Shown here: piece after piece, positions 15,117-48,799 of the stretch
How positions within the stretch are numbered: the first letter of the stretch is position 1
Layout: every line of letters begins with the position of its first letter
Sequence record: SRR2962707_917
Length of the DNA: 52,030 nucleotides
Strand: one strand, 5' to 3'
Translations under genes and position numbers: made by a program
The notes under the pieces: model-generated
What the model was told of the DNA's origin: nothing
What the model saw: the letters and a program-made list of their open reading frames with translations, nothing else
Databases searched by the model: none

Positions 15117-18089
15117 ATGATACCAACGTGGCGCAGTGCCGTTCTGTTTCTGTTTTTGAGCCTTATTCCAGCGGGACTTCTGGCTCAGCCGAAGGAGAGC
15201 ACGACAACTTTTGTGTTCGGAAATAGCCTGGTAAACCACGTGAGTGATGACCCGCGAACCAACGTGCCTATTTGGCTTGCCGACATTGCGCGTTCGGATG
15301 GTCAAAGCCTGAAACTTGATGGCGAATGGGGCTTTATGCGCGACTTTGCCAACAATCTTCCGGCCACGTCGAACTGGTCCTTTGAGGGGGTTCAAAGCGC
15401 GTGGAACTCAGAGAAGACAGCTTTTGACAGTGCGGGTTTTGACACGATCATCCTGTCTCCGACAAACTTCATCCAATACCAATCTGCGACGCGCCCGTTC
15501 GACGGCGACAATCCGAGCGATGTCTCGCCCTTAAGTGTCACGTCACAGGTCTTTGACTGGACCGATGGTCAAACCGCAGGCATGCGACATTTCATTTACG
15601 AAGGTTGGATGGACATGGGGTCTTTGACATCCCGCTTTCCGCCGCGTTCCCGTGTCATGCGCAAGTACCATTCCATGAATCAGGGGAAGTATCACGACTG
15701 GTATGTTGACTACGTGGAGCTGCTGGCCAAGGAACACCCGACCCTTGATTTGCGCTTAATTCCAGTCGCAAGCACGTTGTCTTACCTGCTGAGAGAGACC
15801 CGGCTTCGTGAAATGTCCACCATCGACCTTTATGTTGACGACGCACCACACGGAACGGCAAGTCTATATTTTCTGGCCGCGCTGATCACCTATTCCGCAC
15901 TTTATGAGACACCGCCTCCGGCCGAAATGGCCCTGCCGAACACGGTTCACCCGTCAATTAGATTGAATTATTCAGAAATCGCGCAGGTTATTTGGGAAAA
16001 AGTTCAACCTTTTACTGAACCTTCGAACAAACAGGCCAGTTCAGCAGCACCTGAGCCGATACCGCAAGCGACTGTCGAGACAGTTGCAGCAACGGTCACA
16101 CCCGTCAAAGTAACCACTTCTTCGGACGCCCTCAAACCCGAGGCGCAGACAAAACTACCAAGTCTGGCAATGGGGCTGAATGGTATTGCAGATTGGTCGA
16201 CCCAACAGCCTTTTGTCGACCTAATGAAATCCGCGCGGGTTTGGATCGGACACACAGAAAGCCAATGGGGGGCGATGCCTGCTGAAGAGCTGGAAGACGG
16301 CGGCCATCTGGACGACAACGGCTGGATTAAGAAAATGCCGCCCGGTATCGACCGGGTCGAGGCCTTTCTCTTGACCGATCAACCAAAGGATTCAGTTTCC
16401 CTCAAGGGTAATTACATCCTGCGCTACGACGGACAGGGTGAAATTAGCGTGATCGGCATGGCGAAAACCCGAGATCAAAAACCCGGGGAAATTCGTTTTG
16501 CCTTCTCGCCCGGCGACGGACAAATCGCCGTTGCGATCAAGAGCACGGATCCAACGAACTACATCCGTAACATTAAGATATTTAAGGAAGATCATTTAGA
16601 TCTTATCGAAGCAGGTGTCCTGTTTAATCCGGCCTGGATCGAAAAAATCCATGACCTTCGCAGCGTGCGATTTATGGACTGGATGTTCACCAATGACTCA
16701 AACGTCGAAAACTGGGAACAACGGGCTCACTCCGGCGATTATACCTATGCACGCCGGGGCGTCCCGCTTGAAGTTATGGTGACGCTAGCCAACGAAATCG
16801 GGGCAGATCCTTGGTTCAACATGCCCCATCAGGCAAATGATGACTATGTCCGCGCATTTGCGTCCGCCGTAAAATCAACCTTGGACCCGCGCTTAAAGGC
16901 CTATGTCGAATACTCGAATGAAGTATGGAACTTCATTTTCCAACAAGCCCATTATGCCCAATCCATGGCCGATGATCTTTGGGGAGAAACCGAAGCCGGC
17001 TGGATGCAATACTACGGGCTACGCGCGGCTCAGGTCATGGATATCTGGACTGACGTCTATGGCGCATCAGCACAGGACCAATTGGTTCGCGTGGTTGGCG
17101 TGCACACCGGATGGCCGGGATTGGAATACAGCATTTTGGCCGGTGAAGACGCGGCTGCTACGTATGGCAAGCCACAAAGAGAGAGCTTTGATGCCTATGC
17201 CGTGACAGGTTATTTTGGCTATGAAATGGGCACCGATGAATATGCTGGTACAATTCGCCGGTTGCTGGATGACATTGACGAAGAATTCGAAGATGAAGGC
17301 CGCAAACAAGGTCTTCGCCGCGTCGCGCTTCGCGAATTTTTGCGCGGTAAAACCTATGAAAAAGCCTATCCCACGCTGCAAAAAGCGCTGCTCGAAGGGT
17401 CATTGCGTGAATTGACAGAAGAATTCTTCCCAGCACACGCGGAATCGGCCAAGCGCGCGGGATTGCGTCTTATTATGTACGAAGGCGGCACTCACGTGGC
17501 GAGTCATGGCGCGTTGTTAAACGATGAGCGGGCCACCAAATTATTCACGGGGTTCAACTATTCGCCAGAAATCGCGGTGATTTATAAGGCTCTGCTGGAC
17601 GGATGGGAAAAAGCTGGCGGCACCCTGTTCAATGCCTTTGTAGATGTCGCAAACCCCACGCAATGGGGCAGTTGGGGCGCATTGCGTCACCTGGATGACT
17701 CAAACCCACGCTGGGATGCGCTGATGGCCCAAAACGCTTCTGGGCATGGCCAATGGGAGCAACGCGATCCTGCTGCCTTCCAAAACGGTGTGTTTGAGAG
17801 GGGCACTGCCGCTGCTGACGAATTAATCGGCTCAAACGAAGAAGACGTTTTAATTGCCGGGGACGGGGACGATACGATTTTCCCAAAAGCCGGGAATGAT
17901 CATATCCATGGCGGACCGGGCATCGACTTGATTGTCTTACCCGGGAATGGAACGGGGTATAGTTTTTCCCAAAACGGCGACATGCTGATTGTGACCGGGC
18001 CTCAAGGCGTCGTGACAATGGCATCTGTTGAGTTGGTGGCCTTCGAAGAGGACCCAGAGACGTTGTTCGATGTCTCTGTAATCCAATAG
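15117..18089 (+). CDS. Secreted multidomain protein: SGNH-like domain, linker, GH clan-A-like barrel and RTX Ca-binding repeats
   Basis: Signal-like MIPTWRSAVLFLFLSLIPAGLLA; FGNSL and DDAPH motifs; A/T/P-rich linker; RFMDW, PWFNMPH, VEYSNEVWN, MYEGG; C-terminal AGDGDDTI/AGNDHIHGGPGIDLI nonapeptide repeats. ATG at 15117 after GGAGAG. Confidence 0.65.
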   Translation: MIPTWRSAVLFLFLSLIPAGLLAQPKESTTTFVFGNSLVNHVSDDPRTNVPIWLADIARSDGQSLKLDGEWGFMRDFANNLPATSNWSFEGVQSAWNSEKTAFDSAGFDTIILSPTNFIQYQSATRPFDGDNPSDVSPLSVTSQVFDWTDGQTAGMRHFIYEGWMDMGSLTSRFPPRSRVMRKYHSMNQGKYHDWYVDYVELLAKEHPTLDLRLIPVASTLSYLLRETRLREMSTIDLYVDDAPHGTASLYFLAALITYSALYETPPPAEMALPNTVHPSIRLNYSEIAQVIWEKVQPFTEPSNKQASSAAPEPIPQATVETVAATVTPVKVTTSSDALKPEAQTKLPSLAMGLNGIADWSTQQPFVDLMKSARVWIGHTESQWGAMPAEELEDGGHLDDNGWIKKMPPGIDRVEAFLLTDQPKDSVSLKGNYILRYDGQGEISVIGMAKTRDQKPGEIRFAFSPGDGQIAVAIKSTDPTNYIRNIKIFKEDHLDLIEAGVLFNPAWIEKIHDLRSVRFMDWMFTNDSNVENWEQRAHSGDYTYARRGVPLEVMVTLANEIGADPWFNMPHQANDDYVRAFASAVKSTLDPRLKAYVEYSNEVWNFIFQQAHYAQSMADDLWGETEAGWMQYYGLRAAQVMDIWTDVYGASAQDQLVRVVGVHTGWPGLEYSILAGEDAAATYGKPQRESFDAYAVTGYFGYEMGTDEYAGTIRRLLDDIDEEFEDEGRKQGLRRVALREFLRGKTYEKAYPTLQKALLEGSLRELTEEFFPAHAESAKRAGLRLIMYEGGTHVASHGALLNDERATKLFTGFNYSPEIAVIYKALLDGWEKAGGTLFNAFVDVANPTQWGSWGALRHLDDSNPRWDALMAQNASGHGQWEQRDPAAFQNGVFERGTAAADELIGSNEEDVLIAGDGDDTIFPKAGNDHIHGGPGIDLIVLPGNGTGYSFSQNGDMLIVTGPQGVVTMASVELVAFEEDPETLFDVSVIQ

Positions 18090-18092
18090 TGC

Positions 18093-19289
18093 TTAACCGT
18101 GGAGCCTTTCGATCTCAGTGATCAACGTCTCTGCGCCCAAGCTTGAGCGATAGTTTTGCTCAACATGTTCGCGGCCGTTCTTGCTCAGTTTCTCTGCAAA
18201 ACCACGATCACCGGCCAGTAAACGAATTGCGTCCGCCAAAGCTTTAGGATCCTTGGGGGCCACTAGCATGCCGTTTTCCCCATCTTCGATCAGTTCCATC
18301 ACGCCGCCGGCCCGCGTGCCAATAACGGGGACACCGCAGGCCATGGCCTCCATATAGGCAACACCAAGAGGTTCGTGCCAACTGGCCAAAACAAAAACAT
18401 GCGCGTTCAGTAATTTTTGCTTTACCGCATCGCCATCAATGGCACCCAGCAGCTTCGCATGATCTTGCAAACGCAGTTTTTTCATATGCGCTTCCAGCTC
18501 ACTACGATAACCAGAGCCACCCGCGTCATCTTCACCTGCGATTTCAAGACGAACATCGACGCCTGCATCGATAAGCTGACGAACAGCCGTTAACAAATCC
18601 TGATGGCCTTTGACGACATTCAACCGGCCACAGCTAAATATACGCATCGGCCGACCGTGTTCCGCAGGAATGTACGGCGTTGTGCGTTTTAACGCGTCGA
18701 CATCAACCCCCATGGGGCGAATTGGTAACCGCTCAGGCAAGCTACCTGCAAGTTCCCGCTCAATCTCAGAGACCAGCTTTTTTGTGATCACAGTCGCAAA
18801 CGCGGCATTTGACCATTTGAAACGCTGGCCGGGGCCATAATCGGAAAGCGGACCATGCAGGGTTACCGAATACGTCGGGCCTCCCAATTTATGCGCCAAG
18901 GCCGCAATCAAGGCAGCGCGCCCACAGGAGTGCACATGCACATGGGTCAGTCCGTCTTTCTTGCACTGCCGCAAGAGCTCCAAAGAGGCCGAAAGCGTGA
19001 TCAAAACGTCTTTTGAAAACCCTTTACCCTCTTGCATCATCCAGCGCAGCAAACCTTTGGGTAGCAATTTGGACATCGCGGAAAGCGCGGAAACCAAATC
19101 AACATTCCCAAGGTAAATTGTCCGCTCCATTGCGGTTTGAGACCAGTCGTGCGAAATTAACCCATCCGGAGGCTTACGTGTAGAAAACAGCTGGACGTGG
19201 TGACCCTTCTCTTCCAGGACCTGCAGCTCACGCCAAAAAAATACGTGGGTTTGCCCTGGAAACTGGGGAACTAAATAGCCAATACGCAA
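18093..19289 (-). CDS. GT4 glycosyltransferase (EpsE/WcaL-like)
   Basis: GT-B motifs GRLNVVKG and EPLGVAYMEAMACG (Ex7E). Confidence 0.9.
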   Translation of the reverse strand: MRIGYLVPQFPGQTHVFFWRELQVLEEKGHHVQLFSTRKPPDGLISHDWSQTAMERTIYLGNVDLVSALSAMSKLLPKGLLRWMMQEGKGFSKDVLITLSASLELLRQCKKDGLTHVHVHSCGRAALIAALAHKLGGPTYSVTLHGPLSDYGPGQRFKWSNAAFATVITKKLVSEIERELAGSLPERLPIRPMGVDVDALKRTTPYIPAEHGRPMRIFSCGRLNVVKGHQDLLTAVRQLIDAGVDVRLEIAGEDDAGGSGYRSELEAHMKKLRLQDHAKLLGAIDGDAVKQKLLNAHVFVLASWHEPLGVAYMEAMACGVPVIGTRAGGVMELIEDGENGMLVAPKDPKALADAIRLLAGDRGFAEKLSKNGREHVEQNYRSSLGAETLITEIERLHG

Positions 19290-19451
19290 GCGCGATTCCT
19301 TAGGAAAATTCTGTTTCTTTATTTTGCAAAAAAATGTTCGCCGGTTGACTTCATTTTTTAGAACTTACCATTCTTTGGCCATAGTTAGCAGCTACTTACC
19401 CTCACTATTGTTGACTGTTTTTTAGGATGTGTGACTGCATTGGTACGCAAT

Positions 19452-20312
19452 ATGTCAAATAGCTCGCCGAATGGCGTTCCACTGGTCAGCGTGATCCTAC
19501 CTGCAAACAATGAGGCCAACCTCATTGGGCCCTGCTTAAAGGCTCTGTTGGCGTCTGACTGGGGATATACGCAACCCTGCGAAGTGATCGTTGTGGCCAA
19601 TGGTTGCACAGACGATACCGCTGAGGTCGCCCGCCAATTCCGAATGGATTTCGCGCAGAAAGGTTGGCGGCTTGGGGTTCTGGATTTGCCCGAAGGCGGT
19701 AAGTTGAAGGCTCTGAATGAGGGTGACTCAACAGCAAATGGTCAAATCCGCGTTTACCTTGATGCCGACGTGATCGTGACGCCCCCGCTTATGTCGCAAA
19801 TCGCCGAAGCGCTAAGCATCGATGCGCCTAGATACGCCAGTGGCCAGGTGAAAATCTCAAAAACAAACAACTGGGCCAGTCGCGCGTATCGACGTATTTA
19901 CCAAAGGGTTCCTTTCATGACCAACGGTGTTCCCGGATGTGGTTTGTTTGCCGTCAACGCAGCAGGACGCGCCCGATGGGGGCTTTTTCCGGATATCATC
20001 TCAGACGATACATTTGTCCGTCTTAGCTTTGCTCCGTCCGAGCGCATTGGTGTTCCAGCAAGTTATGAATGGCCCATTGTTGACGGATGGTCGAATTTGG
20101 TCCGTGTCCGGCGGCGTCAGAACATTGGCGTTGATGAAGTTGGCGAAAAATTCCCGGAATTACTGATGAACGATGACAAAGTACCCTTTGGTCTTCGTAG
20201 TAAGTTAAAACTGGCTCTAACCGACCCAATCGGTTTTGCTGTCTATACAGGCGTCGCACTTTTTGTGCGTTTCACGCGCAACCGCGCAACCGGCTGGAGC
20301 CGTGGCAGATGA
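19452..20312 (+). CDS. GT2 glycosyltransferase
   Basis: VSVILPANNE, NGCTDDT, YLDAD (DxD), ISDD, VRRRQ; stop overlaps the wzx start (ATGA). Start may be GTG at 19431. Confidence 0.88.
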   Translation: MSNSSPNGVPLVSVILPANNEANLIGPCLKALLASDWGYTQPCEVIVVANGCTDDTAEVARQFRMDFAQKGWRLGVLDLPEGGKLKALNEGDSTANGQIRVYLDADVIVTPPLMSQIAEALSIDAPRYASGQVKISKTNNWASRAYRRIYQRVPFMTNGVPGCGLFAVNAAGRARWGLFPDIISDDTFVRLSFAPSERIGVPASYEWPIVDGWSNLVRVRRRQNIGVDEVGEKFPELLMNDDKVPFGLRSKLKLALTDPIGFAVYTGVALFVRFTRNRATGWSRGR

Positions 20313-21673
20313 ACCTAGTAATGCGAAAATTCAGCGGGACGTCTCTTTCCGCGCGCGTCCTACGCAGCTCTTTCTTAACCGTTGGTGGTTTTGGCTTTGG
20401 TCAAGTTCTGCGATTGGCGTCGAACCTCCTGCTAACCCGGCTACTTTTCCCGGAAGCCTTCGGAATGATGGCCTTGGTCATGGTTTTCCTTCAGGGATTG
20501 GCCATGTTTTCGGATGTTGGTGTTACGCCCGCAATTATGCAAAGCAAGCGCGGCGATGAGCCTGATTTCCTGAACACAGCCTGGACAATTCAAGTGATCC
20601 GCGGTTTTGCGTTGTGTTTTACAGCTTGCCTGTTCGCATGGCCAATGGCCACGTTTTATGGCGAGCCGCAGTTGATGTATCTGCTACCGGCAGCCAGTAT
20701 AACGCTGATTATCAACGGCTTTAACCCAACGCGGATGGACAGCGCGAACCGTCATCTAAAGCTGGGTCGCGTCACACTTTTGGAAATGGGCACCCAGTTA
20801 ACTGGCACTGTTACAGCCGTTCTTCTGGCCTGGCTCACCGGCTCTGTCTGGGCACTTGTTATCTCGGGCCTGATTTCTGCAACCGTTCATGTGATCATCA
20901 ATTCCATGTTCCTACCCGGGGAACGGAATCGGTTTTATTGGGACAAAAGCGCCGCGAATGAGCTGATCAACTTTGGTAAATGGATCTTTCTTTCAACGAT
21001 TTGCGGGTTCTTCGTCCTGCAAGGCGACAAAATTCTATTCGGGAAATACCTGCCACTTGACGCTTTTGGGGTCTATAACATCGGCTTCTTCCTCGCCTCG
21101 TTTCCAATGCTGTTAGGTGGCTTGGCGATACGGAAAGTCCTTATCCCGATCTATCGGGAATCTCCCCCCGGGGAATCGATTGAAAACTTTAAGAAGCTCC
21201 GCAAAATGCGCATGCTTGTTACAAGCTTCTTGCTGGTTCTAGTCAGTATTTTTGCTACGGTCGGCGTTTGGTTAGCAGACTTCATGTATGATAGTCGCTA
21301 TGAGATGGCAGGCGCTGTCATCGTCCTGATGGCCTGTATGCAAATCCCCCAAATCATTGTCGTCACCTATGATCAGGCGACCCTCGCAGCCGGGGACTCC
21401 AAGCCCTATTTCGTACTTGCCGCGTCCCGAGCCGTGTTTACGATTTTCTGCCTCCTCGTTGGCCTTGAAATGGGGGGGCTGTTAGGCGGAATTATCGCAC
21501 AAGGTGTCGCGGTTCTTTTGGTCTACCCCGTTGTGGTGTGGCTGGCCCGAAAATCTTCGGCTTGGGATCCCATGCATGATGCCGTCTTTTCGATTGCGGG
21601 GATCCTGATTGCATTTGGTGCGCTGACGCTTAACTGGGATCATGTCTTTGATTTGGCAAACGCCGGCTACTGA
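20309..21673 (+). CDS. wzx: Wzx-type oligosaccharide flippase
   Basis: Multi-TM protein with LTRLLFPEAFG, FSDVG, ELINFGKWIF, GDKILFGKYL...FGVYNIG, typical of the polysaccharide synthesis/export family. Confidence 0.85.
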   Translation: MNLVMRKFSGTSLSARVLRSSFLTVGGFGFGQVLRLASNLLLTRLLFPEAFGMMALVMVFLQGLAMFSDVGVTPAIMQSKRGDEPDFLNTAWTIQVIRGFALCFTACLFAWPMATFYGEPQLMYLLPAASITLIINGFNPTRMDSANRHLKLGRVTLLEMGTQLTGTVTAVLLAWLTGSVWALVISGLISATVHVIINSMFLPGERNRFYWDKSAANELINFGKWIFLSTICGFFVLQGDKILFGKYLPLDAFGVYNIGFFLASFPMLLGGLAIRKVLIPIYRESPPGESIENFKKLRKMRMLVTSFLLVLVSIFATVGVWLADFMYDSRYEMAGAVIVLMACMQIPQIIVVTYDQATLAAGDSKPYFVLAASRAVFTIFCLLVGLEMGGLLGGIIAQGVAVLLVYPVVVWLARKSSAWDPMHDAVFSIAGILIAFGALTLNWDHVFDLANAGY

Positions 21674-33949: not shown

Positions 33950-33953
33950 GACT

Positions 33954-34622: not shown

Positions 34623-34625
34623 CCA

Positions 34626-36209: not shown

Positions 36210-36230
36210 AAGGCTGCTCGACTTTTCTTT
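36197..36230. terminator. Probable bidirectional terminator between convergent co-polymerase and BY-kinase genes
   Basis: CGAGCAGCC-ataaaa-GGCTGCTCG perfect 9-bp stem, followed by ACTTTTCTTT; the loop contains the upstream gene's TAA. Confidence 0.7.
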
Positions 36231-40015: not shown

Positions 40016-40025
40016 GTAAAAATCC

Positions 40026-40997
40026 TTACTTGTATTCAATGATGCGCATCTGCGCGCGCCGGAGACGTCGCCAATGGAAAACGGCGATACCCAGCATGTT
40101 TGGAAATTTGGAAAGCGTCAGAAGAACGGCGTGCCGTCTTGCCTCAGCTGAGGGGAGCTCTTCGCGCTGCAACCCTTGAACGGTGCGCACATATGACATG
40201 ACATACACCGCCAGGACAGCAATCGGGATCACCCAAGAGATGAAAGCGCCAAGCAGAAACACCAAAGGCAAGATCAGCCCGTAAACCAGAACGCGTTTAC
40301 GCTCGCGCACAAAGTAATCGGGATGCAAAAAGCCAACTTGCGCAAATCCATGACCAGAGCGAACGCCACGCTGCCACCATTGGCCAAAGCGTGTCATGTC
40401 CGCGTCATGACGCGTCATTTCATGTGGGATACGCTCGAGCTTCCAACCGGACTTGCGCAAGCGCGTGCAAAACTCGTCATCTTCGGCGGCAATGACAGTC
40501 GGATCAAATCCACTGACCAAAGCGAACGCTTCGGCGCGGACCATCATGTCTCCACCGCAAGCCATGATTTCTCCGGCTGGACGACGCCATTCGAAATCAC
40601 AAAGCTGGTTGTATAGGCTCACATCGCGGTTGATCTCTGAACGCCAGCCGGTCACCACTGCAAGATCGGGATGTGCTTCAAGATGGGTTCGACCTAGGTC
40701 AATCCAACCGTCAACCAAGGCACAGTCACCATCGACAAATTGCACGAACTCTGGTGTCGGACCGCTTAACATCAGCGCATCAAATCCGGCATTTCGGGCG
40801 CGTGCCGCGGTAAATGGCACCGACATATCCAAGTTTACAATTTCTGCACCAACCGCCTCAGCCTCAGCAAGACTGCCATCGGTCGATCCGGAATCCACAT
40901 AAACGATGCGCCGCGCCTGTCCCTGAGCCGCCGCCAAGGCATTGATCAGGCGCTGCCCTTCGTTTCGTCCAATGAGGACCACATCAACAGCTGTCAT
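40026..40997 (-). CDS. GT2 glycosyltransferase
   Basis: VVLIGRNEG, YVDSGSTD, ARARNAG, FVDGD, AEDDE; ATGA overlap with the upstream GT4 stop. Confidence 0.9.
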   Translation of the reverse strand: MTAVDVVLIGRNEGQRLINALAAAQGQARRIVYVDSGSTDGSLAEAEAVGAEIVNLDMSVPFTAARARNAGFDALMLSGPTPEFVQFVDGDCALVDGWIDLGRTHLEAHPDLAVVTGWRSEINRDVSLYNQLCDFEWRRPAGEIMACGGDMMVRAEAFALVSGFDPTVIAAEDDEFCTRLRKSGWKLERIPHEMTRHDADMTRFGQWWQRGVRSGHGFAQVGFLHPDYFVRERKRVLVYGLILPLVFLLGAFISWVIPIAVLAVYVMSYVRTVQGLQREELPSAEARRHAVLLTLSKFPNMLGIAVFHWRRLRRAQMRIIEYK

Positions 40998-42247: not shown

Positions 42248-43209
42248 TGGACACCCTCCTTAATCGCGTTTTTAATATTGTCATCAAAGCTGATCGGAAT
42301 TGGGGCGCCTAATGCAGAATGCAGCCCGATGTTGGGCCAAAGCAAGGGCATGACACGAGCGCGGATTATCCGTTCCTGAAGTAAACCCGGCAGCTTATCC
42401 TGAAGAGGAGCAAGGAGCTTGGACAAGATCAGCCAAAACTTCCAAGGTGTTGGAAGCACGATTTTCGGCCATCCAGCAATGGCACGATGCACTTTTAGAA
42501 ACCGCTGACGTGTTGGGCGGTCGTCATCAAGGATATTCACCCCACGTTGCCCCGACGGATCTGTCATGGCCGCGCGAACCAAAGCCCACGCAACAAGATC
42601 GACATGGCACAATGGCAGCTCACCATCGGAATTGATCTGAATGTGCAAAGGACCGGCCCAAGCCCCCATCAACGCGTGCCAAGACCTTCCTGGTCCATAA
42701 ACCGCACCTGGCCGCATCATCCAAAGATCTTCGCGGCGCGCCATACACAAGAGCTCTTGTTGCACCTTTCCGGCTGTATAGGTGTCACGCGCCGATTCTG
42801 CGCTGGCCATCGGACTGGTTTCAATCACTTCCTGACCCGGAGACAATTGATCGGTGTCATAAACAACGATTGAGCTGACAAGAACCAGGCGGGCTTTTGA
42901 ACCTTCCATCGACACCAAAACCGTCTCTGTTCCAGCCAAAGTGTCCCTTTGGACAGCCTGAGCGTCACCACCCAAATGAGCGGCGGCATGAATAACAGCT
43001 CCGCAGGTCGCAATAGCTTTGGCCAAAACCGGCACGGCCTCTGCAAGCGCAAGATCCGCTTTGACCACCGAAATCCCGCTGTCCTTCTGCCAGTCATCTG
43101 GCGTTGCACCTCGGGCGATCGCGACCACCTCGAGCCCGGTTTTGCGCGCCTCAACAACACAGCGTTGCCCGATGAAACCCGTGGCACCAGTGATCAGAAC
43201 ACGTGTCAT
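42244..43209 (-). CDS. NAD-dependent epimerase/dehydratase (extended SDR)
   Basis: ITGATGFIG, VSSIVVY, YTAGK, RPGAVYGPG; ATGA overlaps at both ends. Alternative start at 43218. Confidence 0.87.
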   Translation of the reverse strand: MTRVLITGATGFIGQRCVVEARKTGLEVVAIARGATPDDWQKDSGISVVKADLALAEAVPVLAKAIATCGAVIHAAAHLGGDAQAVQRDTLAGTETVLVSMEGSKARLVLVSSIVVYDTDQLSPGQEVIETSPMASAESARDTYTAGKVQQELLCMARREDLWMMRPGAVYGPGRSWHALMGAWAGPLHIQINSDGELPLCHVDLVAWALVRAAMTDPSGQRGVNILDDDRPTRQRFLKVHRAIAGWPKIVLPTPWKFWLILSKLLAPLQDKLPGLLQERIIRARVMPLLWPNIGLHSALGAPIPISFDDNIKNAIKEGVQ

Positions 43210-44330
43210 TTCGCCCATGTCATTGGCTCCATAGGATCACAGCGAGTGGTCATGGACTGTGCGCCCGAATGCTCTCCCGCGTTTTGAATGGCCAAGGTCA
43301 CTTCGGTCATATGTAACGCGAACTCGTTGGACAAACGACAGGGGCGGTTTTCCTCTAATGCGTCAAACATCTCGGTCGGGCCTAAAAGGAAATTCATTTC
43401 CGCGGCCCCCCAACGTTCCACCTTAGGATGGGTGTCTTTGCCGAGTTTGATCCGTTTCTTAAGCGGGCTTTCCAAAAGGCGACGCCGAATGGACATCCGT
43501 CTTGCATATTTTATCTTGGCCGAGTTGCTCCATGATGCATCACAAGACAAAACACCTTTGTCGCCGATCACGCGGATTTGGTGGTTATGAGGGGCCACTA
43601 TTGAGCATGTCAGCCGTGTCACGGGGCCTTTTTCAAAGAACAACGTCGCAACCGATAAGTCTGGAGCCATCGGCCCATCGCCAACTTTGTTCGGGATCGT
43701 TTCCGCCGAGGCGGCCACGACCGTTCGGACAGAACCGAACCACGCGATCAACCACCCAAGATAATACCCTGCGTGCTCCAAGGTACAGCCAACCTTAAAT
43801 TCATCTAAGTAGGGCCAAGCGACACCTGTTTCCGAAAGCCATTTCTTGTAAGCAGCTTGTGGCACAAAACCGTCATCCAGTTCGGCATAAATGGCTCTTG
43901 GTGTGCCAGCGATATCGTTCCGGATGGCATGTCCGAGCGTTTGCGCAGCTTCGCCCAAAGTCGAGCACGGCGCGGATGACAACATAAGGCCCTTTTCCGC
44001 TGCTAGCTCATATAAATCTTTGGCTTCCTCGACGGTCATCGCCAAGGGCTTTTCGGAATACACATGATGACCTGCATTCAAGCAAGACTGGTTTACGTCA
44101 AAATGTGCGCTTGGATTGGTCAGGTTGAGCACAACGCCACCTGACGGAAAGTCAGCCAGAAGCTCGTTCTGACTAGCGGCGGCGGACACGTTCCAAAATT
44201 CGCAGAACGTCCGAAGCCGTTCAGCATCGATGTCATATATACCATGAACTTGAATATCCGGGAAAGTCTTGAGCGACCTCATATAAAGGTCCGCGACAAA
44301 ACCACATCCGATGATGGCGATCTTCCGCAT
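43206..44330 (-). CDS. Gfo/Idh/MocA family oxidoreductase
   Basis: AIIGCGFVA Rossmann motif, HVYSEKPL. Confidence 0.87.
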   Translation of the reverse strand: MRKIAIIGCGFVADLYMRSLKTFPDIQVHGIYDIDAERLRTFCEFWNVSAAASQNELLADFPSGGVVLNLTNPSAHFDVNQSCLNAGHHVYSEKPLAMTVEEAKDLYELAAEKGLMLSSAPCSTLGEAAQTLGHAIRNDIAGTPRAIYAELDDGFVPQAAYKKWLSETGVAWPYLDEFKVGCTLEHAGYYLGWLIAWFGSVRTVVAASAETIPNKVGDGPMAPDLSVATLFFEKGPVTRLTCSIVAPHNHQIRVIGDKGVLSCDASWSNSAKIKYARRMSIRRRLLESPLKKRIKLGKDTHPKVERWGAAEMNFLLGPTEMFDALEENRPCRLSNEFALHMTEVTLAIQNAGEHSGAQSMTTRCDPMEPMTWAK

Positions 44331-44641
44331 CAAATTGCCCTCGGGCGCATGATTACAGTGTGCCGCCTACGTTCCCGCAGGAAAGCCCTAAAATTGCTTA
44401 TCATTTTGCCTCTACTCGTCAGTCAGATTACCGCCTATTCTTACCCTTTCAACAAACAATCGTGACGACAATTCGGCGAATCTTCGCCATTTGCTGCAAC
44501 AGCGAAGTAATTTTTTCATTTTGTTGTATATTCGTTTGGTTGTGTACATCTGGCCACGACAATTCATGAATGTTGCCGCGATTTCGCCCGACTTATTTAT
44601 TACTTTATTTAAAGAGCAAAACTATGGGGCAAGAGCTTAGC

Positions 44642-45400
44642 ATGAGATTCAATTTCGGAACGACCTTGATCCGGGTGAATGTCCCGACTTGGACGGCGAT
44701 GAGGCAAGATGTGCGTGCGAAACTGCGCGACAAAAAGGGCTTTGCTCTTGCGACGATCAATTTGGATCACCTGGTTAAGCTTCAGGCTTCGCCCAAATTT
44801 CGTGAAGCCTATTCCGCGCAAGATATGATCGTTGCAGATGGCAATCCTATTGTCTGGATGTCGCGACTTGCCCGTCGGCCCGTTGAACTGATCCCCGGTT
44901 CAGAGGCGATTTTACCCTTGGCGCAAATTGCAGCCCAGGAAAATGTCGGAATTGCACTGGTTGGAAGTACCGATGAATCGTTAGCAGCTTCGACCGACTA
45001 TCTGGAACGCGAAGTTCCCGGTTTGAAGGTGGTTTGCAAGATTGCGCCCCCCTTTGGTTTCGATCCTGACGGAGAGACTGCATCAGACATCTTTGACCAG
45101 ATATCTGCCTCTGACGCGGGGCTGTGTTTCATTGCCCTTGGCGCGCCGAAACAAGAGATCTTCGCAGCGGCAGGGCGCAAAAATGCCCCCAATGTTGGAT
45201 TTGTCAGCATTGGCGCCGGATTGGACTTTTTTGCCGGAACACAAAAGCGTGCTCCAACTTGGGTCCGGCGTTTGGCGGTGGAATGGCTTTGGCGGGCTGC
45301 GCTAAATCCGCGTCGGTTGGGCATGCGCTACGTCAAATGCTTGGCGATCTTACCAGGTCAGACGCTGCGCGCGTTCGCACTTCGGTTTTCCCGCATCTAG
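44642..45400 (+). CDS. WecB/TagA/CpsF (GT26) glycosyltransferase
   Basis: TINLDH, VADGNPI, PPFG, ALGAPKQE, GAGLDFFAG...RAPTW...EWLWR...PRRL. Start uncertain. Confidence 0.9.
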   Translation: MRFNFGTTLIRVNVPTWTAMRQDVRAKLRDKKGFALATINLDHLVKLQASPKFREAYSAQDMIVADGNPIVWMSRLARRPVELIPGSEAILPLAQIAAQENVGIALVGSTDESLAASTDYLEREVPGLKVVCKIAPPFGFDPDGETASDIFDQISASDAGLCFIALGAPKQEIFAAAGRKNAPNVGFVSIGAGLDFFAGTQKRAPTWVRRLAVEWLWRAALNPRRLGMRYVKCLAILPGQTLRAFALRFSRI

Positions 45401-45549: not shown

Positions 45550-46050
45550 TTGTCCCATGAGAACAAAATCTCTGCTGAAACGCCAGATTGGAGCCGTGAA
45601 GCCATTAGGCGGTTTTGGGATCCCGCCGGCAAGCTACTCCGCTCGATCAGACGGTATCAGGCCTGCCAGAACTCTGGCGGCTTGATTGGCAAAATTGGGT
45701 CGAAATATTGGGCGCTGAACCATTTGTTCTGGTCCACAATTACACAAAGCGAGATCCACTTGAACATGGAGCTTGGTGGCGGGCTCTTGCTGGTGCATCC
45801 GACGGGAATTATCATTCATCCTGACGCCAAAATTGGCCCAAATTGTCTCATTTTTCAGCAAGTGACATTGGCAGGCCCGGTTACCTTGGGCGGGCATGTC
45901 GATATTGGCGCGGGTGCAAAGATTTTGAACGGTGTCACGATTGGCGATCATTCTGAAATCGGTGCCAATGCCGTTGTCACAAAAGATGTCCCAGCCGGCG
46001 TTGTGATGGCCGGTAGTCCCGCCAGACAGATTGGCGTGCGGCCAGACTAA
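45550..46050 (+). CDS. Left-handed beta-helix O-acetyltransferase (CysE/WcaB-like)
   Basis: Hexapeptide repeats HPTGIIIHPDAKIGPNCLI, IGAGAKI, IGANAVVTKDVP...AGSPAR; TTG start after GAGGAA. Confidence 0.85.
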   Translation: MSHENKISAETPDWSREAIRRFWDPAGKLLRSIRRYQACQNSGGLIGKIGSKYWALNHLFWSTITQSEIHLNMELGGGLLLVHPTGIIIHPDAKIGPNCLIFQQVTLAGPVTLGGHVDIGAGAKILNGVTIGDHSEIGANAVVTKDVPAGVVMAGSPARQIGVRPD

Positions 46051-47372
46051 TAGAAGTCCGGTTTCGCTTGGCTTGGATCAAGACACCACCGATAGACATC
46101 GGCCACTTGTTCTGCCTTTTTCCGCCATGTGAAGTGACTTTGCACCCGCTGACGCGCTGCTTTGCTTGTTTCATCCAACACCGTTGGATCAGCGGATAAT
46201 CTTGTCAGCTCTGACTGGAAACCATCAATGATTTCCTGACGCGTCCCGCACGGAACTTTGAAACCTGTTCCCGAAATGACCAGTTCGCCCGGGCCGGCAT
46301 AGTCAACAATCAACGGCGTTACACCCAGCGCCATGGCCTCTAGAACGACACCGCCGCCAAATTCACGGATCGAAGGGAAAGACAGGATATGGCATTTCGC
46401 CATAACATCTTGAACGGTTTCATGTGCCATCCAGCCATGAAAAGTGATCGCTTCAGAGAGCCCCGCGCCTTCTGCCTGTGCTTTTAGCGCGTCCATCATT
46501 GGGCCATCACCGATCAAATCCAATGTCATGCGACCATCTCGCAACAATGGCTCCGCCGCGGCGATCAGCATATCCGCACCCTTGTAGGGCACCAGACGTC
46601 CTACGAAACAAGCCCGCAAAGGTTTTTCGACAGGGGTCGCCACCCTGTTGAAACGCTCCGGATCAATGGCATTCTCCGGCATGTAGATCAGCTTATCCAC
46701 GCAGCTAGCGGGCATTTCGCTGGCCGTGTGCCGCGAACCAACCAAGATTGCGCTCGAATTGCGTATCGTAGAAGCCCGACCCGGCAGTAATTTATAGGCG
46801 GACCGCAAATAGCTGAGCCATTCTTTTTCGCGGCGACGCTCTGCATCAAAAGAAGCTGGCCAAGGGACCCCACCATTCAACGGTCCAAGGACAAAGGGCA
46901 CTCCCGCCCGCGCACATTTTCGAGCCAGACTGCTTGAAATCGTGGGGCTAAGCGGCGTCACACGATGAACGATATCAAAATCGCCTCGCTTGATCGCAGG
47001 GCCGAACTGTTTCCAAACAAGATGCTCAAAATACGGATAGCTTATCGCATTGATCGCCTGCAAAGTTGTCCAGCCTTTGCCCTCACCCATCCGCAGTTTT
47101 TCGGCCAATGCCCACATGGGACGCGCGAAAGTCTCAGAATCGATGGCGGTAAAGTCGACGTTTTCGACCAGACCAGCACGCAAAATCGCGTCACGATTCC
47201 GCGTTTGTGTCACAAGATGAACGTCGGCGACGTCGCGCAACGCATGTGCGAGTGACCAACCAACCAACGGCACGCTAACCCACTCGGGGTTTGCGGCCTC
47301 GGCGATTACAAGAACGCGTGGTTTTCGATTTGGTGAAACGTTTTCTTGAGGTGTCAAAGGATGGACTGCCAC
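46047..47372 (-). CDS. GT4 glycosyltransferase
   Basis: FVGRLVPYKG, PSIREFGGGVVLEAMALG. Confidence 0.9.
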   Translation of the reverse strand: MAVHPLTPQENVSPNRKPRVLVIAEAANPEWVSVPLVGWSLAHALRDVADVHLVTQTRNRDAILRAGLVENVDFTAIDSETFARPMWALAEKLRMGEGKGWTTLQAINAISYPYFEHLVWKQFGPAIKRGDFDIVHRVTPLSPTISSSLARKCARAGVPFVLGPLNGGVPWPASFDAERRREKEWLSYLRSAYKLLPGRASTIRNSSAILVGSRHTASEMPASCVDKLIYMPENAIDPERFNRVATPVEKPLRACFVGRLVPYKGADMLIAAAEPLLRDGRMTLDLIGDGPMMDALKAQAEGAGLSEAITFHGWMAHETVQDVMAKCHILSFPSIREFGGGVVLEAMALGVTPLIVDYAGPGELVISGTGFKVPCGTRQEIIDGFQSELTRLSADPTVLDETSKAARQRVQSHFTWRKKAEQVADVYRWCLDPSQAKPDFY

Positions 47373-48799
47373 TTCGGTTCAACTAAGGGCTCGTGTTCGG
47401 CGACAGATTCGCCCTGAACGGCTTGCCGGGTTTCTTTCTTGAGTCTTGCGGCGCGCAACGCTTCTGCATAGCCCGTCAGGGCACCGGCCATTATCCAGGT
47501 CAAAGGCGTCAGCGTCGCATTTGGAAGCAAATCGGATACGTTGATCGCAAGAAGTAAGGCCATGGGCGCGACTAGAAACGATACATTTTTGGATCTCGCA
47601 CCCGCAGATTCGAACAAGATCAGGAATATTGGTAAGGTCAGCAGTCCGAATTCCGCCAGGAAGCCAACCCAGCCATAGACACCAATCACAATGATCCAAC
47701 GACCATCCGTGATCGTCTGCAAGGCACCGGTAATCGGATCAAGAATGTGGTTACGACCCCAGCTTCCCCATCCGAAAATGGGTTTTTCATAGGCCCGTTC
47801 CAAAAGGATGTTTTCGTTCTGAAAGCGGAATCTAAGGGACGCGGCGCGTTGTTCCTGCACCGCTGCGGCCTGTTCAAGAAACTTCTCTTCCGGGATAAGG
47901 TTGGCCCCCTTAAGAACAGGATAACCAACGGCCAAAACCGCAATCAAGGCCGCCACTTTGATCTGCGTTCGTGGACCCGTAAAGATCACCAGCGGCAGCA
48001 GGATTGCCGCAAAGATCCAGGCCCCCAGGGATTTTGCCAAAAATAAGATGATCAGCAAATAGATCCCTGCAGCAAAGAACTTAGCATTTGGTTTTGCAAG
48101 ATCAGCTTTGCTTGCACGCCAAAGGGAAAAGGCGGCAATCAACGCCATCATACAATAAAATGCGACCCAAATGCCGTGGTACAAAAACACCACCGGACGG
48201 TAGCCGCCAAAGCGGACCGATTGGCCAAAGAAGTGCTGGAAATAGCCGTAAACCCAAAGATTCAACTGCGGCGAAACTCTGATTTCAATGAGCATTAATA
48301 GAGAGTAAACCAGCCCCCCCACCATCAAGGCGCGCATCAATTCCCACTGGGACTCTCTCGTGCGCAAGAATTGACGGGCCAAAAGGAAGGGCAAGATCAT
48401 AAGAAATTGTTGAAGGATCAGCGCAAGCGCATCCTTCAACCCAAGACCGGGCAAGCCGACCTGACCAAAAAACACGGGTGCGCCATTATTCAAAGCCGTC
48501 ATGATGGGCGAAAAAATGTAGACGATTAGCAGCGTTTTTCCGACGATCGAACTGGGCATCCAAGGCTCCACCGCATCGCTTCGGTAGAGCACAATGAAAA
48601 ACGCTGTGAGTGAAGGTATGGTGTGTTTATCAAGCGGAGGAAGAACCGGAAGGTCAAAGGCAGCCGGATACTCCGGTAGAAAAAGATAGGCCACCAATAG
48701 CGTAAGAATGAGCGCACGGTCCGGTTTGTGCCGGCGAAACAAAATCACCGTCACGATGGGCCATATGGCCAAAGCCAAATATGCCAGTGCATTGGGCAT
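47354..48799 (-). CDS. Wzy polymerase / O-antigen-ligase-like membrane protein
   Basis: Many TM helices; GYRPVVF...HG, KSLGA, SLRFRF, KPIFGWGSWG, GVYGWVG resemble Wzy_C/WaaL loop motifs. Confidence 0.7.
   Translation of the reverse strand: MPNALAYLALAIWPIVTVILFRRHKPDRALILTLLVAYLFLPEYPAAFDLPVLPPLDKHTIPSLTAFFIVLYRSDAVEPWMPSSIVGKTLLIVYIFSPIMTALNNGAPVFFGQVGLPGLGLKDALALILQQFLMILPFLLARQFLRTRESQWELMRALMVGGLVYSLLMLIEIRVSPQLNLWVYGYFQHFFGQSVRFGGYRPVVFLYHGIWVAFYCMMALIAAFSLWRASKADLAKPNAKFFAAGIYLLIILFLAKSLGAWIFAAILLPLVIFTGPRTQIKVAALIAVLAVGYPVLKGANLIPEEKFLEQAAAVQEQRAASLRFRFQNENILLERAYEKPIFGWGSWGRNHILDPITGALQTITDGRWIIVIGVYGWVGFLAEFGLLTLPIFLILFESAGARSKNVSFLVAPMALLLAINVSDLLPNATLTPLTWIMAGALTGYAEALRAARLKKETRQAVQGESVAEHEPLVEPKWQSIL

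Follow-up and report, generated by a model that had tools for sequence, protein, structure and literature searches.

The DNA analyzed here (hereafter the window) is a stretch of 52,030 nt from record SRR2962707_917, and positions 15090–48832 of it hold a polysaccharide and PKS/NRPS locus of 20 genes, identified from open reading frames and Pfam and NCBIfam models (Table 1). Seven glycosyltransferases, a Wzx flippase, a Wzy_C-domain protein, a split Wzz/kinase pair, a hexapeptide acyltransferase, three sugar oxidoreductases, a secreted esterase–glycosidase–RTX protein, and a PKS–GT2–NRPS–PPTase cassette were encoded in the locus; the cassette has wzx on one side and the Wzz-like gene on the other. 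Every element named in a first-pass annotation of this DNA was recovered, its position agreeing exactly or to within about 30 bases. From GT2a to the Wzz-like gene, seven genes run in one direction; GT2a overlaps the start of wzx by 4 bases, and there are overlaps of the same length between GT2c and the PKS stop and between GT2c and the NRPS start, so that the packing of this run is operon-like. The run ends at the best terminator-like hairpin of our scan; the total number of terminator-like sites was not above that in shuffles.

Between ahcY and the molybdopterin oxidoreductase gene, the only transporter identified by Pfam and NCBIfam models was wzx, and these models identified neither a regulator nor a resistance-type gene, in agreement with the earlier claim that a dedicated exporter, resistance gene, and regulator are missing. 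Neither an initiating phosphoglycosyltransferase nor an outer-membrane exporter was found by Pfam within the window. In the locus itself, Pfam matches included no aminotransferase that could provide an amino sugar as acceptor, no acyltransferase besides the hexapeptide protein, and no fatty-acyl ligase or lipid-handling gene.

Table 1. Features of the locus and its borders (positions in the window).
Feature	Position	Strand	Remarks
ahcY	13556–14950		Bounds the locus on one side
Secreted 999-aa RTX protein	15090–18089	+	Predicted N-terminal signal-like segment, SGNH-type esterase, GH-A-like TIM-barrel glycosidase, C-terminal RTX beta-roll
GT4 glycosyltransferase (GT4a)	18093–19289	-	Glycos_transf_1 131.8 bits; orthologues of 55–74% identity adjoin the cassette
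GT2 glycosyltransferase (GT2a)	19431–20312	+	Glycos_transf_2 69.4 bits
Wzx-type MOP flippase	20309–21673	+	Polysacc_synt_3 165 bits; NCBIfam MOP flippase models match below cut-offs
Single-module type I PKS	21862–28335	+	KS-AT-(KR structural subdomain)-KR-DH-PCP-like carrier-TE (Pfam)
GT2 glycosyltransferase of the cassette (GT2c)	28332–29357	+	Glyco_tranf_2_3 62.1 bits
Starter NRPS	29354–33949	+	Formyltransferase (F), A domain interrupted by luciferase-like monooxygenase, PCP; no C domain (Pfam)
Sfp/EntD-type phosphopantetheinyl transferase (PPTase)	33954–34622	+	4PPT_N 80.4 bits, ACPS 41 bits; ORF open from 33693
Wzz/GNVR-type polysaccharide co-polymerase	34893–36209	+	Wzz 24.7 bits, GNVR 20.7 bits, both just below cut-off
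Terminator-like hairpin, bidirectional	36197–36220		Between convergent Wzz-like and kinase genes; 9 pairs, 7 G-C
P-loop tyrosine-autokinase-like protein	36229–37683	-	CbiA/ParA; tyrosine autokinase models TIGR03018 and TIGR01007 match below cut-offs
Gfo/Idh/MocA oxidoreductase–NAD-dependent sugar epimerase/dehydratase fusion	37907–40039	-	GFO_IDH_MocA 94.9 bits, Epimerase 117.8 bits; orthologues 59–77% identity
GT2 glycosyltransferase (GT2b)	40026–41072	-	Glycos_transf_2
GT4 glycosyltransferase (GT4b)	40994–42247	-	Glycos_transf_1 148 bits
SDR sugar epimerase/dehydratase	42244–43218	-	Epimerase 72.6 bits
Gfo/Idh/MocA sugar oxidoreductase	43206–44333	-	GFO_IDH_MocA 79.7 bits
WecG/TagA/CpsF-family glycosyltransferase	44570–45400	+	Glyco_tran_WecG 149.2 bits; TIGR00696 113.8 bits (cut-off 69)
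Predicted hexapeptide-repeat acyl(acetyl)transferase, O- or N-acyl	45550–46050	+	Hexapep 46.4 bits
GT4 glycosyltransferase (GT4c)	46047–47372	-	Glycos_transf_1 91.1 bits
Wzy_C-domain membrane protein	47354–48832	-	Wzy_C 25.2 bits, below Pfam cut-off 31.7
Molybdopterin oxidoreductase	49075–51999		Bounds the locus on the other side

The Wzz-like protein also matched the chain-length determinant model TIGR03007 (E 1.7e-29, below cut-off), and 30 of 80 loci have an orthologue of it following the PPTase gene. By their model matches, this protein and the P-loop kinase are the putative membrane and cytoplasmic halves, respectively, of a split Wzc. The Wzy_C protein is likely a polymerase, a ligase role being less likely. 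For the secreted RTX protein, the only Pfam matches were HemolysinCabind and a weak TarS_linker. In an alignment of 14 orthologues, G44, S46, and L47 (motif FGNSL) and D250 to H254 (DDAPH) were invariant, and the motifs NEVWN and YEGGTH were also present. The AlphaFold (AF2) model of the protein (mean pLDDT 78.6) matched GH10, GH51, and GH79 barrels, the acetyl-mannan esterase 6hfz, the DUF4886 protein 4i8i, and the RTX structure 9cse in Foldseek; the protein is thus predicted to combine an SGNH-type esterase, a clan GH-A-like TIM-barrel glycosidase, and an RTX beta-roll.

In the starter NRPS, an FMN luciferase-like monooxygenase is inserted between motifs A4 and A5 of the A domain and scores 470.9 bits against model TIGR04020 (cut-off 244). 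The protein matched LgrA (6mfz, E 2e-230) and the PuwE monooxygenase (6ket, E 1.6e-94). Its motifs were kept in 34–37 of 37 orthologues, subsampled from 73 near-full-length ones. The F domain carries the N-x-H motif (37/37) and the Asp. The A-domain code, read by hand in GrsA numbering, was D-I-L-Q-M-G-M-I-W-K, with its positions in the FDISVLE, HxQCTPS, and NMYGPTETTIWS motifs kept in all 37 orthologues; we take it to specify glycine, by comparison with a reference code for this residue. The N-formyl-glycyl starter proposed in the first-pass annotation is accordingly supported as a prediction by the F-domain residues and the glycine-type code, and the monooxygenase insert fits the suggestion that the unit may be oxidized. 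Parts of PMC4504003 give a precedent for F-A(Gly)-PCP starters, and a portion of PMC10204066 describes A domains for glycine in which a monooxygenase inserted between a4 and a5 hydroxylates the glycyl alpha-carbon. The same portion holds a precedent for fragmentation, in myxothiazol; by analogy, an alpha-hydroxy-N-formylglycyl thioester could break down here to formamide and a glyoxylyl thioester, altering the product.

The PKS contains the motifs TACS, HGTGT, NIGH, GHSMG, IAAHS, YVAAN, HRTARGDALLP, HPALMD, LGGHSL, GFSGG, and GDH, kept in 31–33 of 33 orthologues subsampled from 65 near-full-length ones. The KS Cys/His/His residues were kept in 33/33, and the AT motifs GHSMG and IAAHS in 32/33 each; the latter is unusual yet conserved. 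The KR motif was YVAAN in 31 rows and YLAAN in two, the Tyr itself being present in all 33. The TE Ser motif was kept in 32/33, and the TE His motif was identical in 31/33. The DH His motif contains one extra residue; together with the atypical order of KR before DH, this makes the reductive outcome uncertain. By sequence, the TE is classed as an ordinary type I thioesterase; such domains mostly hydrolyse or cyclise. It also matched the TE of Pks13 (E 2.5e-12), which transfers its product to trehalose. For the PPTase, ATG at 33954 is the probable start, and the median length of its orthologues is 226 aa. The intact, conserved catalytic motifs point to formyl-glycine loading, alpha-hydroxylation, one ketide extension, reduction, dehydration, and TE release as the predicted chemistry, and extension with reduction and dehydration, as proposed earlier, fits one KS-AT-KR-DH module with a TE.

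We analyzed the distribution of the cassette in 301 evenly drawn genomes of the family. The NRPS orthologue was found in 100 and the Wzy orthologue in 107 of them: both in 92, NRPS only in 8, Wzy only in 15, and neither in 186 (Fisher p 5e-51, a value that overstates independence since shared ancestry was not corrected for). Where the two lay on the same contig, 68 of 74 pairs were within 25 kb; three genomes retain both, with the NRPS and Wzy halves 178–420 kb apart. In 20 genomes with long contigs, matches to the polysaccharide panel numbered 90 upstream (19/20 regions) and 106 downstream (15/20 regions) of the cassette, versus a single match (1/20 regions) in 20 control regions 130–150 kb away. 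One polysaccharide gene set is shared by 19 of the 20 around the cassette, and its orthologues occur there in at least three differing gene orders; the RTX protein orthologue was within the locus in 15/20. This gene arrangement is far beyond chance, and the locus (~34 kb) is, judged by orthologue content, conserved across Rhodobacterales. Among orthologous cassettes (NRPS identity at least 53%), those lacking polysaccharide genes, whose frequent occurrence would have spoken against the linkage, were rare (19/20 flanks, 92/100 with Wzy). Since the cassette is almost always kept with one polysaccharide gene set, we consider a sugar polymer at the cell surface the most likely destination of its product, rather than release as an antibiotic.

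An unlikely alternative is that the cassette makes a small molecule that is free to diffuse (such as 4-formamidobut-2-enoate, a furanone/lactone, or a GT2c-made glycoside) and acts as a signal, protectant, or antagonist; the genes would then be co-located only through a shared role in surface colonisation, co-regulation, or co-transfer. Assembly lines that end in a TE are the usual architecture where a product is released, and the genome-mining papers PMC4337385 and PMC10584327 class the cluster, in the parts available, as secondary-metabolite. Genome G296 carries an apparently intact PKS–NRPS among housekeeping genes with no GT2c or Wzy orthologue, and G215 has a PKS–NRPS likewise devoid of both, with a TGA inside the NRPS; the glycan genes are thus not required for the assembly line to be retained. 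Multi-module NRPS/PKS clusters that lack polysaccharide genes (G043, G106, G197) also contain related F-A(MOx)-PCP starters (42–44% identity). However, the locus has no exporter, regulator, or resistance gene, the Wzy orthologue is retained in nearly all NRPS-positive genomes even where the two are far apart, and the polysaccharide orthologues remain by the cassette through the rearrangements. GT2c also argues against a free product: its family occurs in polysaccharide loci that lack the cassette, and in G296 and G215 it was lost along with the polysaccharide genes.

Relatives of GT2c numbered at least 489, among 600 scored candidate stretches of genome contigs, and of the loci centred on GT2c that had 3 kb or more of flank, 70 of 73 contained one or more polysaccharide genes (Pfam). 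Of ten genomes that lack the cassette but have a Wzy homologue, nine held WecG–Wzy–GT2c'–GT2b loci without a PKS or NRPS match, the GT2c' paralogues (30–36% identity) lying beside Wzy. In a quick tree, GT2c and GT2c' cluster apart from GT2a, GT2b, and GT2x (SH-aLRT 88). In four loci (L063, L069, L071, L072), GT2c is co-transcribed with WecG and convergent to NRPS–PKS. GT2c would therefore be a repeat-unit glycosyltransferase of polysaccharide ancestry, possibly handling the sugar that bears, or neighbours, the acyl substituent.

These data weaken the option, left standing by the first-pass annotation, that the polyketide–peptide unit is an aglycone or reducing-end cap, with GT2c glycosylating its hydroxyl (alpha-hydroxyglycine or beta-hydroxy) and the glycan being built on it or ligated by the Wzy_C protein. 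The placement of GT2c between the PKS and NRPS genes would suit such a role, as would the lack of an initiating phosphoglycosyltransferase within the window, the match of the sole Wzy-like protein to the O-antigen-ligase Pfam family, and the hydroxyls that monooxygenase and KR would supply. Nevertheless, we regard it as improbable: 13 of 20 related genomes have an initiating phosphoglycosyltransferase (Bac_transf) within this locus, indicating that undecaprenyl priming is the rule for this locus type; the units handled by Wzx and Wzy are lipid-linked, and membrane anchoring is not possible through a C4 acid; and GT2c' occurs without PKS or NRPS, while in the four loci above GT2c goes with WecG. 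Very improbable is an iterative PKS that would extend the formyl-glycine starter to a longer chain, polyene or lipid, for a glycolipid or lipid anchor, in the manner of the capsule-locus PKS proteins or heterocyst glycolipid synthases. In its favour, KR precedes DH, as in iterative PUFA and enediyne synthases, TIGR02813 (PfaA) matches weakly, well below cut-off, and no ER domain is present, so that iteration would give a polyene. Against it, the carrier domain is single, neither a fatty-acyl ligase nor a lipid-handling gene was found in the locus, and the KS-AT part most resembles modules of the modular NRPS-accepting or cis-AT kind (8xju_A, E 1.5e-225; CurL 4mz0; DEBS).

We thus somewhat favour the reading that the cassette and the heteropolysaccharide pathway of Wzx/Wzy/Wzc type act together as a single functional unit whose acyl product decorates the glycan. 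What we observe of the locus is its genes, the order of their domains, intact motifs, and joint inheritance; the case for coupling cassette and glycan is entirely one of gene neighbourhood and co-occurrence, from which we infer acyl attachment. The precise structure of the acyl unit, its acceptor, and transfer by the TE are proposed as follows. The PPTase would prime both carrier domains; the NRPS would adenylate glycine and load its own PCP, where the F domain would N-formylate it and the monooxygenase hydroxylate its alpha-carbon. The KS would accept this starter and condense it with one malonyl-type extender, and KR and DH would yield a 4-formamido(-4-hydroxy)but-2-enoyl-type thioester on the PCP-like carrier. 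The TE may then pass the short acyl unit to a repeat-unit sugar or nucleotide-sugar precursor and not to water. The decorated unit would be flipped by Wzx and polymerised by the Wzy_C protein, with its length set by the split Wzc, and the secreted SGNH-esterase/glycosidase/RTX protein may trim or remodel the acylated polymer outside the cell.

The earlier interpretation is partly supported: the starter and the chemistry as predictions, and the linkage to polysaccharide genes by co-occurrence, with the aglycone option weakened. Its mention of similar PKS/NRPS cassettes in roseobacter genomes also agrees with parts of PMC4337385 and PMC10584327, where an orphan four-gene cluster of the marine Roseobacter group is described with no characterised product. 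The cassette of the window is this long-known orphan cluster (PMC4337385, in part); what our analysis adds to it is how tightly the cassette is tied to polysaccharide genes.

According to the ORF listing, the locus at 15090-48832 consisted of about 20 genes, bordered by the genes of S-adenosylhomocysteine hydrolase and a molybdopterin oxidoreductase. The gene inventory of the first-pass annotation was borne out by this listing and by Pfam and NCBIfam scans. Its statement that no dedicated exporter or regulator is present was also confirmed: the scans found neither a regulator nor a small-molecule transporter in the locus. The PKS, GT2c (a GT2 glycosyltransferase), NRPS, and PPTase genes form a cassette between wzx and a Wzz-like gene.

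Genes and other features of the window (positions in nucleotides; products in amino acids)
Feature	Position	Strand	Product length
UvrD-helicase + PD-(D/E)XK gene and PD-(D/E)XK gene	153-6571	minus	
Histidine kinase	9337-10725	minus	
SCO1/SenC	10725-11438		
Receiver + Fis-type HTH	11501-12070		
S-adenosylhomocysteine hydrolase (ahcY)	13556-14950		
RTX protein			999 aa
PKS	21862-28335		2157 aa
GT2c	28332-29357		
NRPS	29354-33949		1531 aa
Basic C-terminal tail of NRPS	33880-33949		
PPTase	ATG probably at 33954; ends 34622		
Terminator-like hairpin	36197-36220		
Molybdopterin oxidoreductase	49075-51999		
Other locus genes: GT4a, GT2a, wzx, Wzz/GNVR-like, P-loop kinase-like, Gfo-epimerase fusion, GT2b, GT4b			
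Other locus genes, continued: SDR epimerase (Epi), Gfo oxidoreductase, WecG/TagA-family transferase, hexapeptide transferase (Hexa), GT4c, Wzy_C membrane protein			

The wzx product, a MOP flippase, matched Polysacc_synt_3 with 165 bits (cut-off 23). The Wzy_C protein, a putative polymerase or ligase with conserved orthologues, scored 25.2 bits, under the cut-off of 31.7, and the Wzz, GNVR, and tyrosine-autokinase models all matched the split Wzc-like pair under their curated cut-offs. Because of these scores, the Wzy_C, Wzz, GNVR, and tyrosine-kinase assignments are treated here as family-level resemblances. The P-loop kinase-like gene was convergent to the Wzz/GNVR-like gene. We failed to find an initiating phosphoglycosyltransferase (Bac_transf or Glycos_transf_4 in Pfam) among the window proteins, or a Wza-type outer-membrane exporter (Poly_export) among the scanned ones; the exporter gene could be located elsewhere in the genome. 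Genes of aminotransferases, including those of class I/II (AONS-like), and of ABC transporters were absent from the window according to Pfam. A search of PDB with the Gfo-epimerase fusion returned generic oxidoreductases only.

All genes from GT2a through the Wzz-like gene were co-directional, with 4-base overlaps at GT2a/wzx, PKS/GT2c, and GT2c/NRPS. The end of this block coincided with the strongest terminator-like hairpin of the window scan, in which promoter-like sites were rarer than in shuffled sequences and terminator-like sites did not exceed them. Outside the locus, the genes of a histidine kinase, a SCO1/SenC protein, and a receiver protein with a Fis-type HTH were located just upstream of ahcY; we take this arrangement (9337-12070) to resemble the RegB-SenC-RegA (PrrBCA) redox regulators of Rhodobacter. 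Two large minus-strand genes near the beginning of the window resembled an AddA/AddB-type helicase-nuclease pair.

The adjacent NRPS, PKS, glycosyltransferase, and PPTase genes that define the orphan roseobacter PKS/NRPS cluster were all present in the window, and, judging by these genes, the cassette is to be assigned to that cluster. PMC4337385 reports it from 28 of 57 Roseobacter genomes as conserved across the lineage and, as of 2015, with an uncharacterised product, and credits it to Martens et al.; according to PMC10584327, the product of the hybrid was still unknown in 2023. The contig search returned at least 489 relatives of GT2c among 600 candidate stretches that were scored, the closest of those listed having 70-71% identity; the best 80 came almost entirely from genomes titled as Rhodobacterales genera or as metagenome-assembled genomes. 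Of 301 genomes drawn evenly from the family, 100 encoded a full-length NRPS orthologue (53-68% identity). Neither a product of the cluster nor a tie to polysaccharide synthesis was mentioned in the open-access main texts searched. The capsule genes linked to the gene-transfer agent of Rhodobacter capsulatus were considered as a known counterpart and rejected, as neither "polyketide" nor "non-ribosomal" occurs in PMC10218006.

We analyzed the surroundings of the cassette in two samples. The first comprised the best 80 of at least 489 GT2c loci, taken with at most 10 kb to either side of GT2c, which reaches about 3.5 kb and 5.4 kb beyond the cassette. The PKS, GT2c, and NRPS genes were found together in 76 of these 80 loci; 30 had the gene order of the window, and 22 more contained Wzy or WecG homologues. 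Flank ORFs were clustered after masking of the cassette with tblastn, and clusters without a Pfam match, probably spurious ORFs, were not counted as polysaccharide genes. Bac_transf, rmlABCD, and further glycosyltransferases were annotated among the recurrent flank genes. Within the same best 80, 73 loci had at least 3 kb of flank; three or more polysaccharide genes were present in 57 of them and at least one in 70. Two of the apparent exceptions (L040 and L059) had only the PPTase-side flank, with unrelated genes, and are uninformative, since their contigs end after the PPTase-side boundary. The third (L068) contained a c7unk gene and weak GT4-like and RmlB-like matches.

The second, less biased sample included 20 NRPS-positive genomes with long contigs and NRPS identities of 54-68%. 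A tblastn panel of polysaccharide proteins was applied in each genome to the upstream 20 kb, the downstream 15 kb, and, as a control, a 20-kb region 130-150 kb off. It gave 90 matches upstream (19 of 20 regions), 106 downstream (15 of 20), and a single one in the controls (1 of 20). The same orthologues surrounded the cassette in at least three gene orders: GT4a/b/c, GT2a/b, wzx, Wzz, the kinase, the Gfo-epimerase fusion, Gfo, Epi, WecG, Hexa, and Wzy recurred in the flanks, together with the RTX protein (15/20 loci) and Bac_transf (13/20).

Among the 301 genomes, 107 encoded a Wzy orthologue: 92 had both NRPS and Wzy, 8 NRPS only, 15 Wzy only, and 186 neither (odds ratio 143, a statistic that ignores phylogeny). 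When both genes were on one contig, they were at most 25 kb apart in 68 of 74 pairs. The locus was split in G125, G241, and G100, where 178, 261, and 420 kb, respectively, separated the Wzy part and the cassette on the same contig; both parts were kept. Homologous cassettes frequently lacking polysaccharide genes, the pattern that the first-pass annotation had set against its own proposal, were not found: such genes flanked the cassette in 19 of the 20 sampled genomes, and Wzy was present in 92 of 100 NRPS genomes. Co-inheritance of the cassette and the polysaccharide genes is well above the matched control; what the first-pass annotation observed is genuine and no product of chance.

The eight NRPS-only genomes fell into three groups. 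Three (G030, G139, and G212) were represented by fragmentary contigs. Another three (G043, G106, and G197; L161-L166) contained relatives of the NRPS (42-44% identity) with the same order of formyltransferase, adenylation domain split by a monooxygenase, and carrier, F-A(MOx)-PCP, in multi-module NRPS/PKS clusters without GT2c or polysaccharide genes. These are a different kind of cluster, and they indicate that larger assembly lines employ this starter design too. In the remaining two, the PKS gene was directly beside the NRPS gene, which was interrupted by a TGA in G215 (L100/L120) and apparently intact in G296 (L167/L168), where glutamine synthetase and cobalamin genes were the neighbours. 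Neither a GT2c orthologue anywhere in the genome, nor a Wzy orthologue, nor a polysaccharide flank was found in G215 or G296. The synthetases can therefore, if rarely, persist alone, and this is the main evidence for a cassette that makes a free metabolite. In these two genomes, GT2c shared the fate of the polysaccharide genes, not that of the synthetases. We regard a free metabolite as unlikely. A protein of about 326 residues without a Pfam match (cluster 7; L043:16291-17271) followed the PPTase gene in 15 of the best 80 loci listed and was also encoded in several of the 20 sampled genomes and beside the stand-alone PKS-NRPS of G296. It was absent from the window and perhaps belongs to the cassette as a component so far overlooked.

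Flanks were fetched for 10 of the 15 Wzy-only genomes (L141-L160). Nine contained a sister locus, WecG-Wzy-GT2c'-GT2b, with wzx, GT4b, rml genes, or Bac_transf; GT2c' is a paralogue of GT2c with 30-36% identity. No PKS or NRPS match was found in the nine sister loci. In a quick tree, GT2c and two GT2c' groups clustered together, apart from GT2a, GT2b, and GT2x (SH-aLRT 88); a comparison of GT2c with PDB sequences gave one weak match, uninformative on the acceptor. Most simply, the cassette-less loci, which hold GT2c' in this setting, suggest that a Wzy-dependent locus already had its repeat-unit glycosyltransferase when the PKS and NRPS-PPTase genes came to be inserted on either side of it. 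The assembly line would then be an add-on to a glycan pathway rather than the glycosyltransferase an add-on to a metabolite pathway.

An alignment of 14 orthologues of the RTX protein revealed invariant FGNSL (G44/S46/L47) and DDAPH (D250..H254) motifs, which we take to be SGNH blocks I and V; the middle domain contained NEVWN and YEGGTH motifs. The AlphaFold model (mean pLDDT 78.6) was related by Foldseek to the two-domain acetyl-mannan esterase 6hfz, the DUF4886 protein 4i8i, TIM barrels of GH10, GH51, and GH79, and RTX domains, with TM-scores that were all low, the query being multi-domain. Atlas and sequence-to-PDB searches returned only "calcium-binding protein" and RTX matches, so the esterase-glycosidase assignment comes from the alignment and the model. 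A co-inherited secreted enzyme of this predicted type would fit an O-acylated polymer, whatever its acyl group, that is trimmed outside the cell.

The NRPS consisted of a formyltransferase (N and C parts), an A domain with an inserted luciferase-like FMN monooxygenase, and a PCP; neither a C domain nor a TE was detected by Pfam, which indicates a starter module. The insert (Bac_luciferase, residues 771-1089; TIGR04020, 470.9 bits, cut-off 244) was located between A4 (FDISV, 722) and A5 (NMYGPTE, 1193). Among solved structures, LgrA (PDB 6mfz, E 2e-230) came closest to the NRPS and the PuwE monooxygenase (E 1.6e-94) to its insert. The F-domain motifs VNFHDGPLP and VDEGD with the catalytic Asn, His, and Asp and the carrier motif LGGHSL were present, and the N-x-H of the F domain was kept in 37 of 37 orthologues. 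The A-domain code, read by hand as D-I-L-Q-M-G-M-I-W-K, was glycine-like when its positions were numbered after GrsA and set against the code taken as the reference for glycine. The F, A, PCP order without a preceding C domain is that of an LgrA-type formylating initiation module, and a flavin monooxygenase between A4 and A5 of a glycine-type A domain is the feature of MtaG/MelG; the NRPS did not match their terminal amide-releasing C-A(MOx)-PCP-TE design. The protein ended in a strongly basic, Arg-rich tail overlapping an upstream open stretch of the PPTase frame; the PPTase start is therefore probably the downstream ATG.

The PKS had the domain order KS-AT-KR-DH-carrier-TE, with KR, unusually, preceding DH (residues 1173-1680). 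The Cys/His/His triad of KS was intact, and the Ser/Asp/His set of TE was present. In AT, GHSMG was accompanied by an unusual IAAHS (residues 730-734) where HAFH or YASH is expected; this motif was found in 32 of 33 orthologues and does not allow the extender unit to be predicted. KR contained its Tyr and had VDD at the LDD position, DH contained His (with one extra residue before Gly) and Asp, and the carrier motif, likewise unusual for a PKS, was the NRPS-style LGGHSL (residues 1806-1811). In subsamples of the near-full-length orthologues (33 of 65 PKS and 37 of 73 NRPS sequences), all motifs were kept in 31-33 of 33 and 34-37 of 37 rows, respectively, which argues that every domain is under selection. 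PDB matches of the TE region included the TE of Pks13 (E 2.5e-12), an enzyme that presumably acylates trehalose (mycolate transfer).

From these domains, the thioester product is predicted to be a 4-formamido(-4-hydroxy)but-2-enoyl-type unit, with a glyoxylyl-derived compound, an oxazole, or a lactone as alternatives. A CongE/OzmP-type ATP-dependent cyclodehydratase was absent from the Pfam matches of all scanned window ORFs. By analogy, the alpha-hydroxy carbinolamide of the formyl-glycine unit may be either kept or cleaved.

The proposal of the first-pass annotation that the product is joined to a Wzx/Wzy glycan as a substituent or aglycone is plausible and has gained comparative support, now quantitative, with a chemistry of attachment that is still conjectural. 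We lean somewhat towards a product that ends up covalently bound in the glycan, most likely as a side-chain acyl group delivered by TE. From the observed gene content, domain integrity, and co-inheritance we infer the acyl structure, acceptor, and transfer step as follows. TE would pass the butenoyl-type unit straight onto a lipid-linked or nucleotide-activated sugar, and the dedicated secreted esterase-glycosidase would edit the decoration. We advance only tentatively the full proposal that about one-third of Rhodobacterales place an NRPS-PKS-made, N-formyl-(alpha-hydroxy)glycine-derived butenoyl group on a Wzy-dependent surface polysaccharide in this way. A product serving as an aglycone or reducing-end cap seems improbable to us. 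An iterative route to a lipid or polyene is scarcely to be expected, as the nearest structures to KS-AT were 8xju_A (a "Polyketide synthase" entry, E 1.5e-225) and CurL; this part thus resembles modular enzymes more than iterative ones.

We know of no earlier hybrid NRPS-PKS substituent of a Wzx/Wzy glycan. If the acyl-decoration proposal is correct, this would be the first, as far as our searches reach, and also the product that has long been sought for the orphan cluster of roseobacters. The search for the product would shift from culture extracts to purified polysaccharide, and the failure of genome mining and metabolomics to find it would be explained. Among surface colonisers roseobacters are dominant, and they are also partners of algae. 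Their attachment, recognition by phages and gene-transfer agents, and interaction with hosts could be affected by such a decoration, which would be of a chemical class new to glycans. With the co-occurrence data at hand, tractable strains bearing the locus allow a direct test of the question.

The window thus adds another member to a known orphan cluster family, read here as a case of PKS in a polysaccharide locus. RkpA of Sinorhizobium (rkp-1) and WcbR of Burkholderia are PKSs of capsule loci with a Kps-type ABC-transporter context, an AONS-like partner, and no NRPS, and a lipid is their presumed product. The window resembles these systems in having a type I PKS, presumably for a non-sugar part of the polymer, inside a surface-polysaccharide locus. 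It differs from their descriptions in the Wzx/Wzy context, the F-A(MOx)-PCP NRPS partner, the predicted C4 formamido acid, and the lack of an AONS-like gene. In Vibrio cholerae O1, the tetronate genes rfbK-O provide carrier-protein-dependent acyl substituents of the O-antigen. Together with the TE of Pks13, they are chemical precedents for delivery of a thiotemplate acyl group to a sugar, and not relatives: they show little sequence similarity and involve other enzymes and other acyl groups.

The F-A-PCP initiation with a glycine-type A domain is shared with LgrA of linear gramicidin and with conglobatin-type starters. In PMC4504003, F-A(Gly)-PCP starters of conglobatin (CongA), oxazolomycin, and rhizopodin pass formyl-glycine to a KS, a hand-over also expected here, and need the cyclodehydratase CongE/OzmP. 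Unlike them, the window system has a monooxygenase insert, a single subsequent PKS module, no CongE/OzmP-type gene, and a glycan-gene context. According to PMC10204066, monooxygenases at a4-a5 of the glycine A domains for myxothiazol and melithiazol (MtaG/MelG) introduce a hydroxyl at the glycyl alpha-carbon; the carbinolamide is cleaved there and retained in solanimycin (SolF). The window NRPS shares the glycine-type A domain and the position of the flavin monooxygenase with these modules; they are terminal or internal, contain C domains, and act on N-acylated glycine, whereas here the module is a starter and formyl is the N-acyl group. The closest counterpart is the cluster of PMC4337385, with the same four genes in the same order, 53-74% identity to the Rhodobacterales orthologues, and a similar frequency. 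That paper treats a four-gene secondary-metabolite cluster, whereas here the four genes are inherited together with Wzx/Wzy/Wzc-type polysaccharide genes and a predicted secreted esterase-glycosidase, in one locus of about 20 genes.
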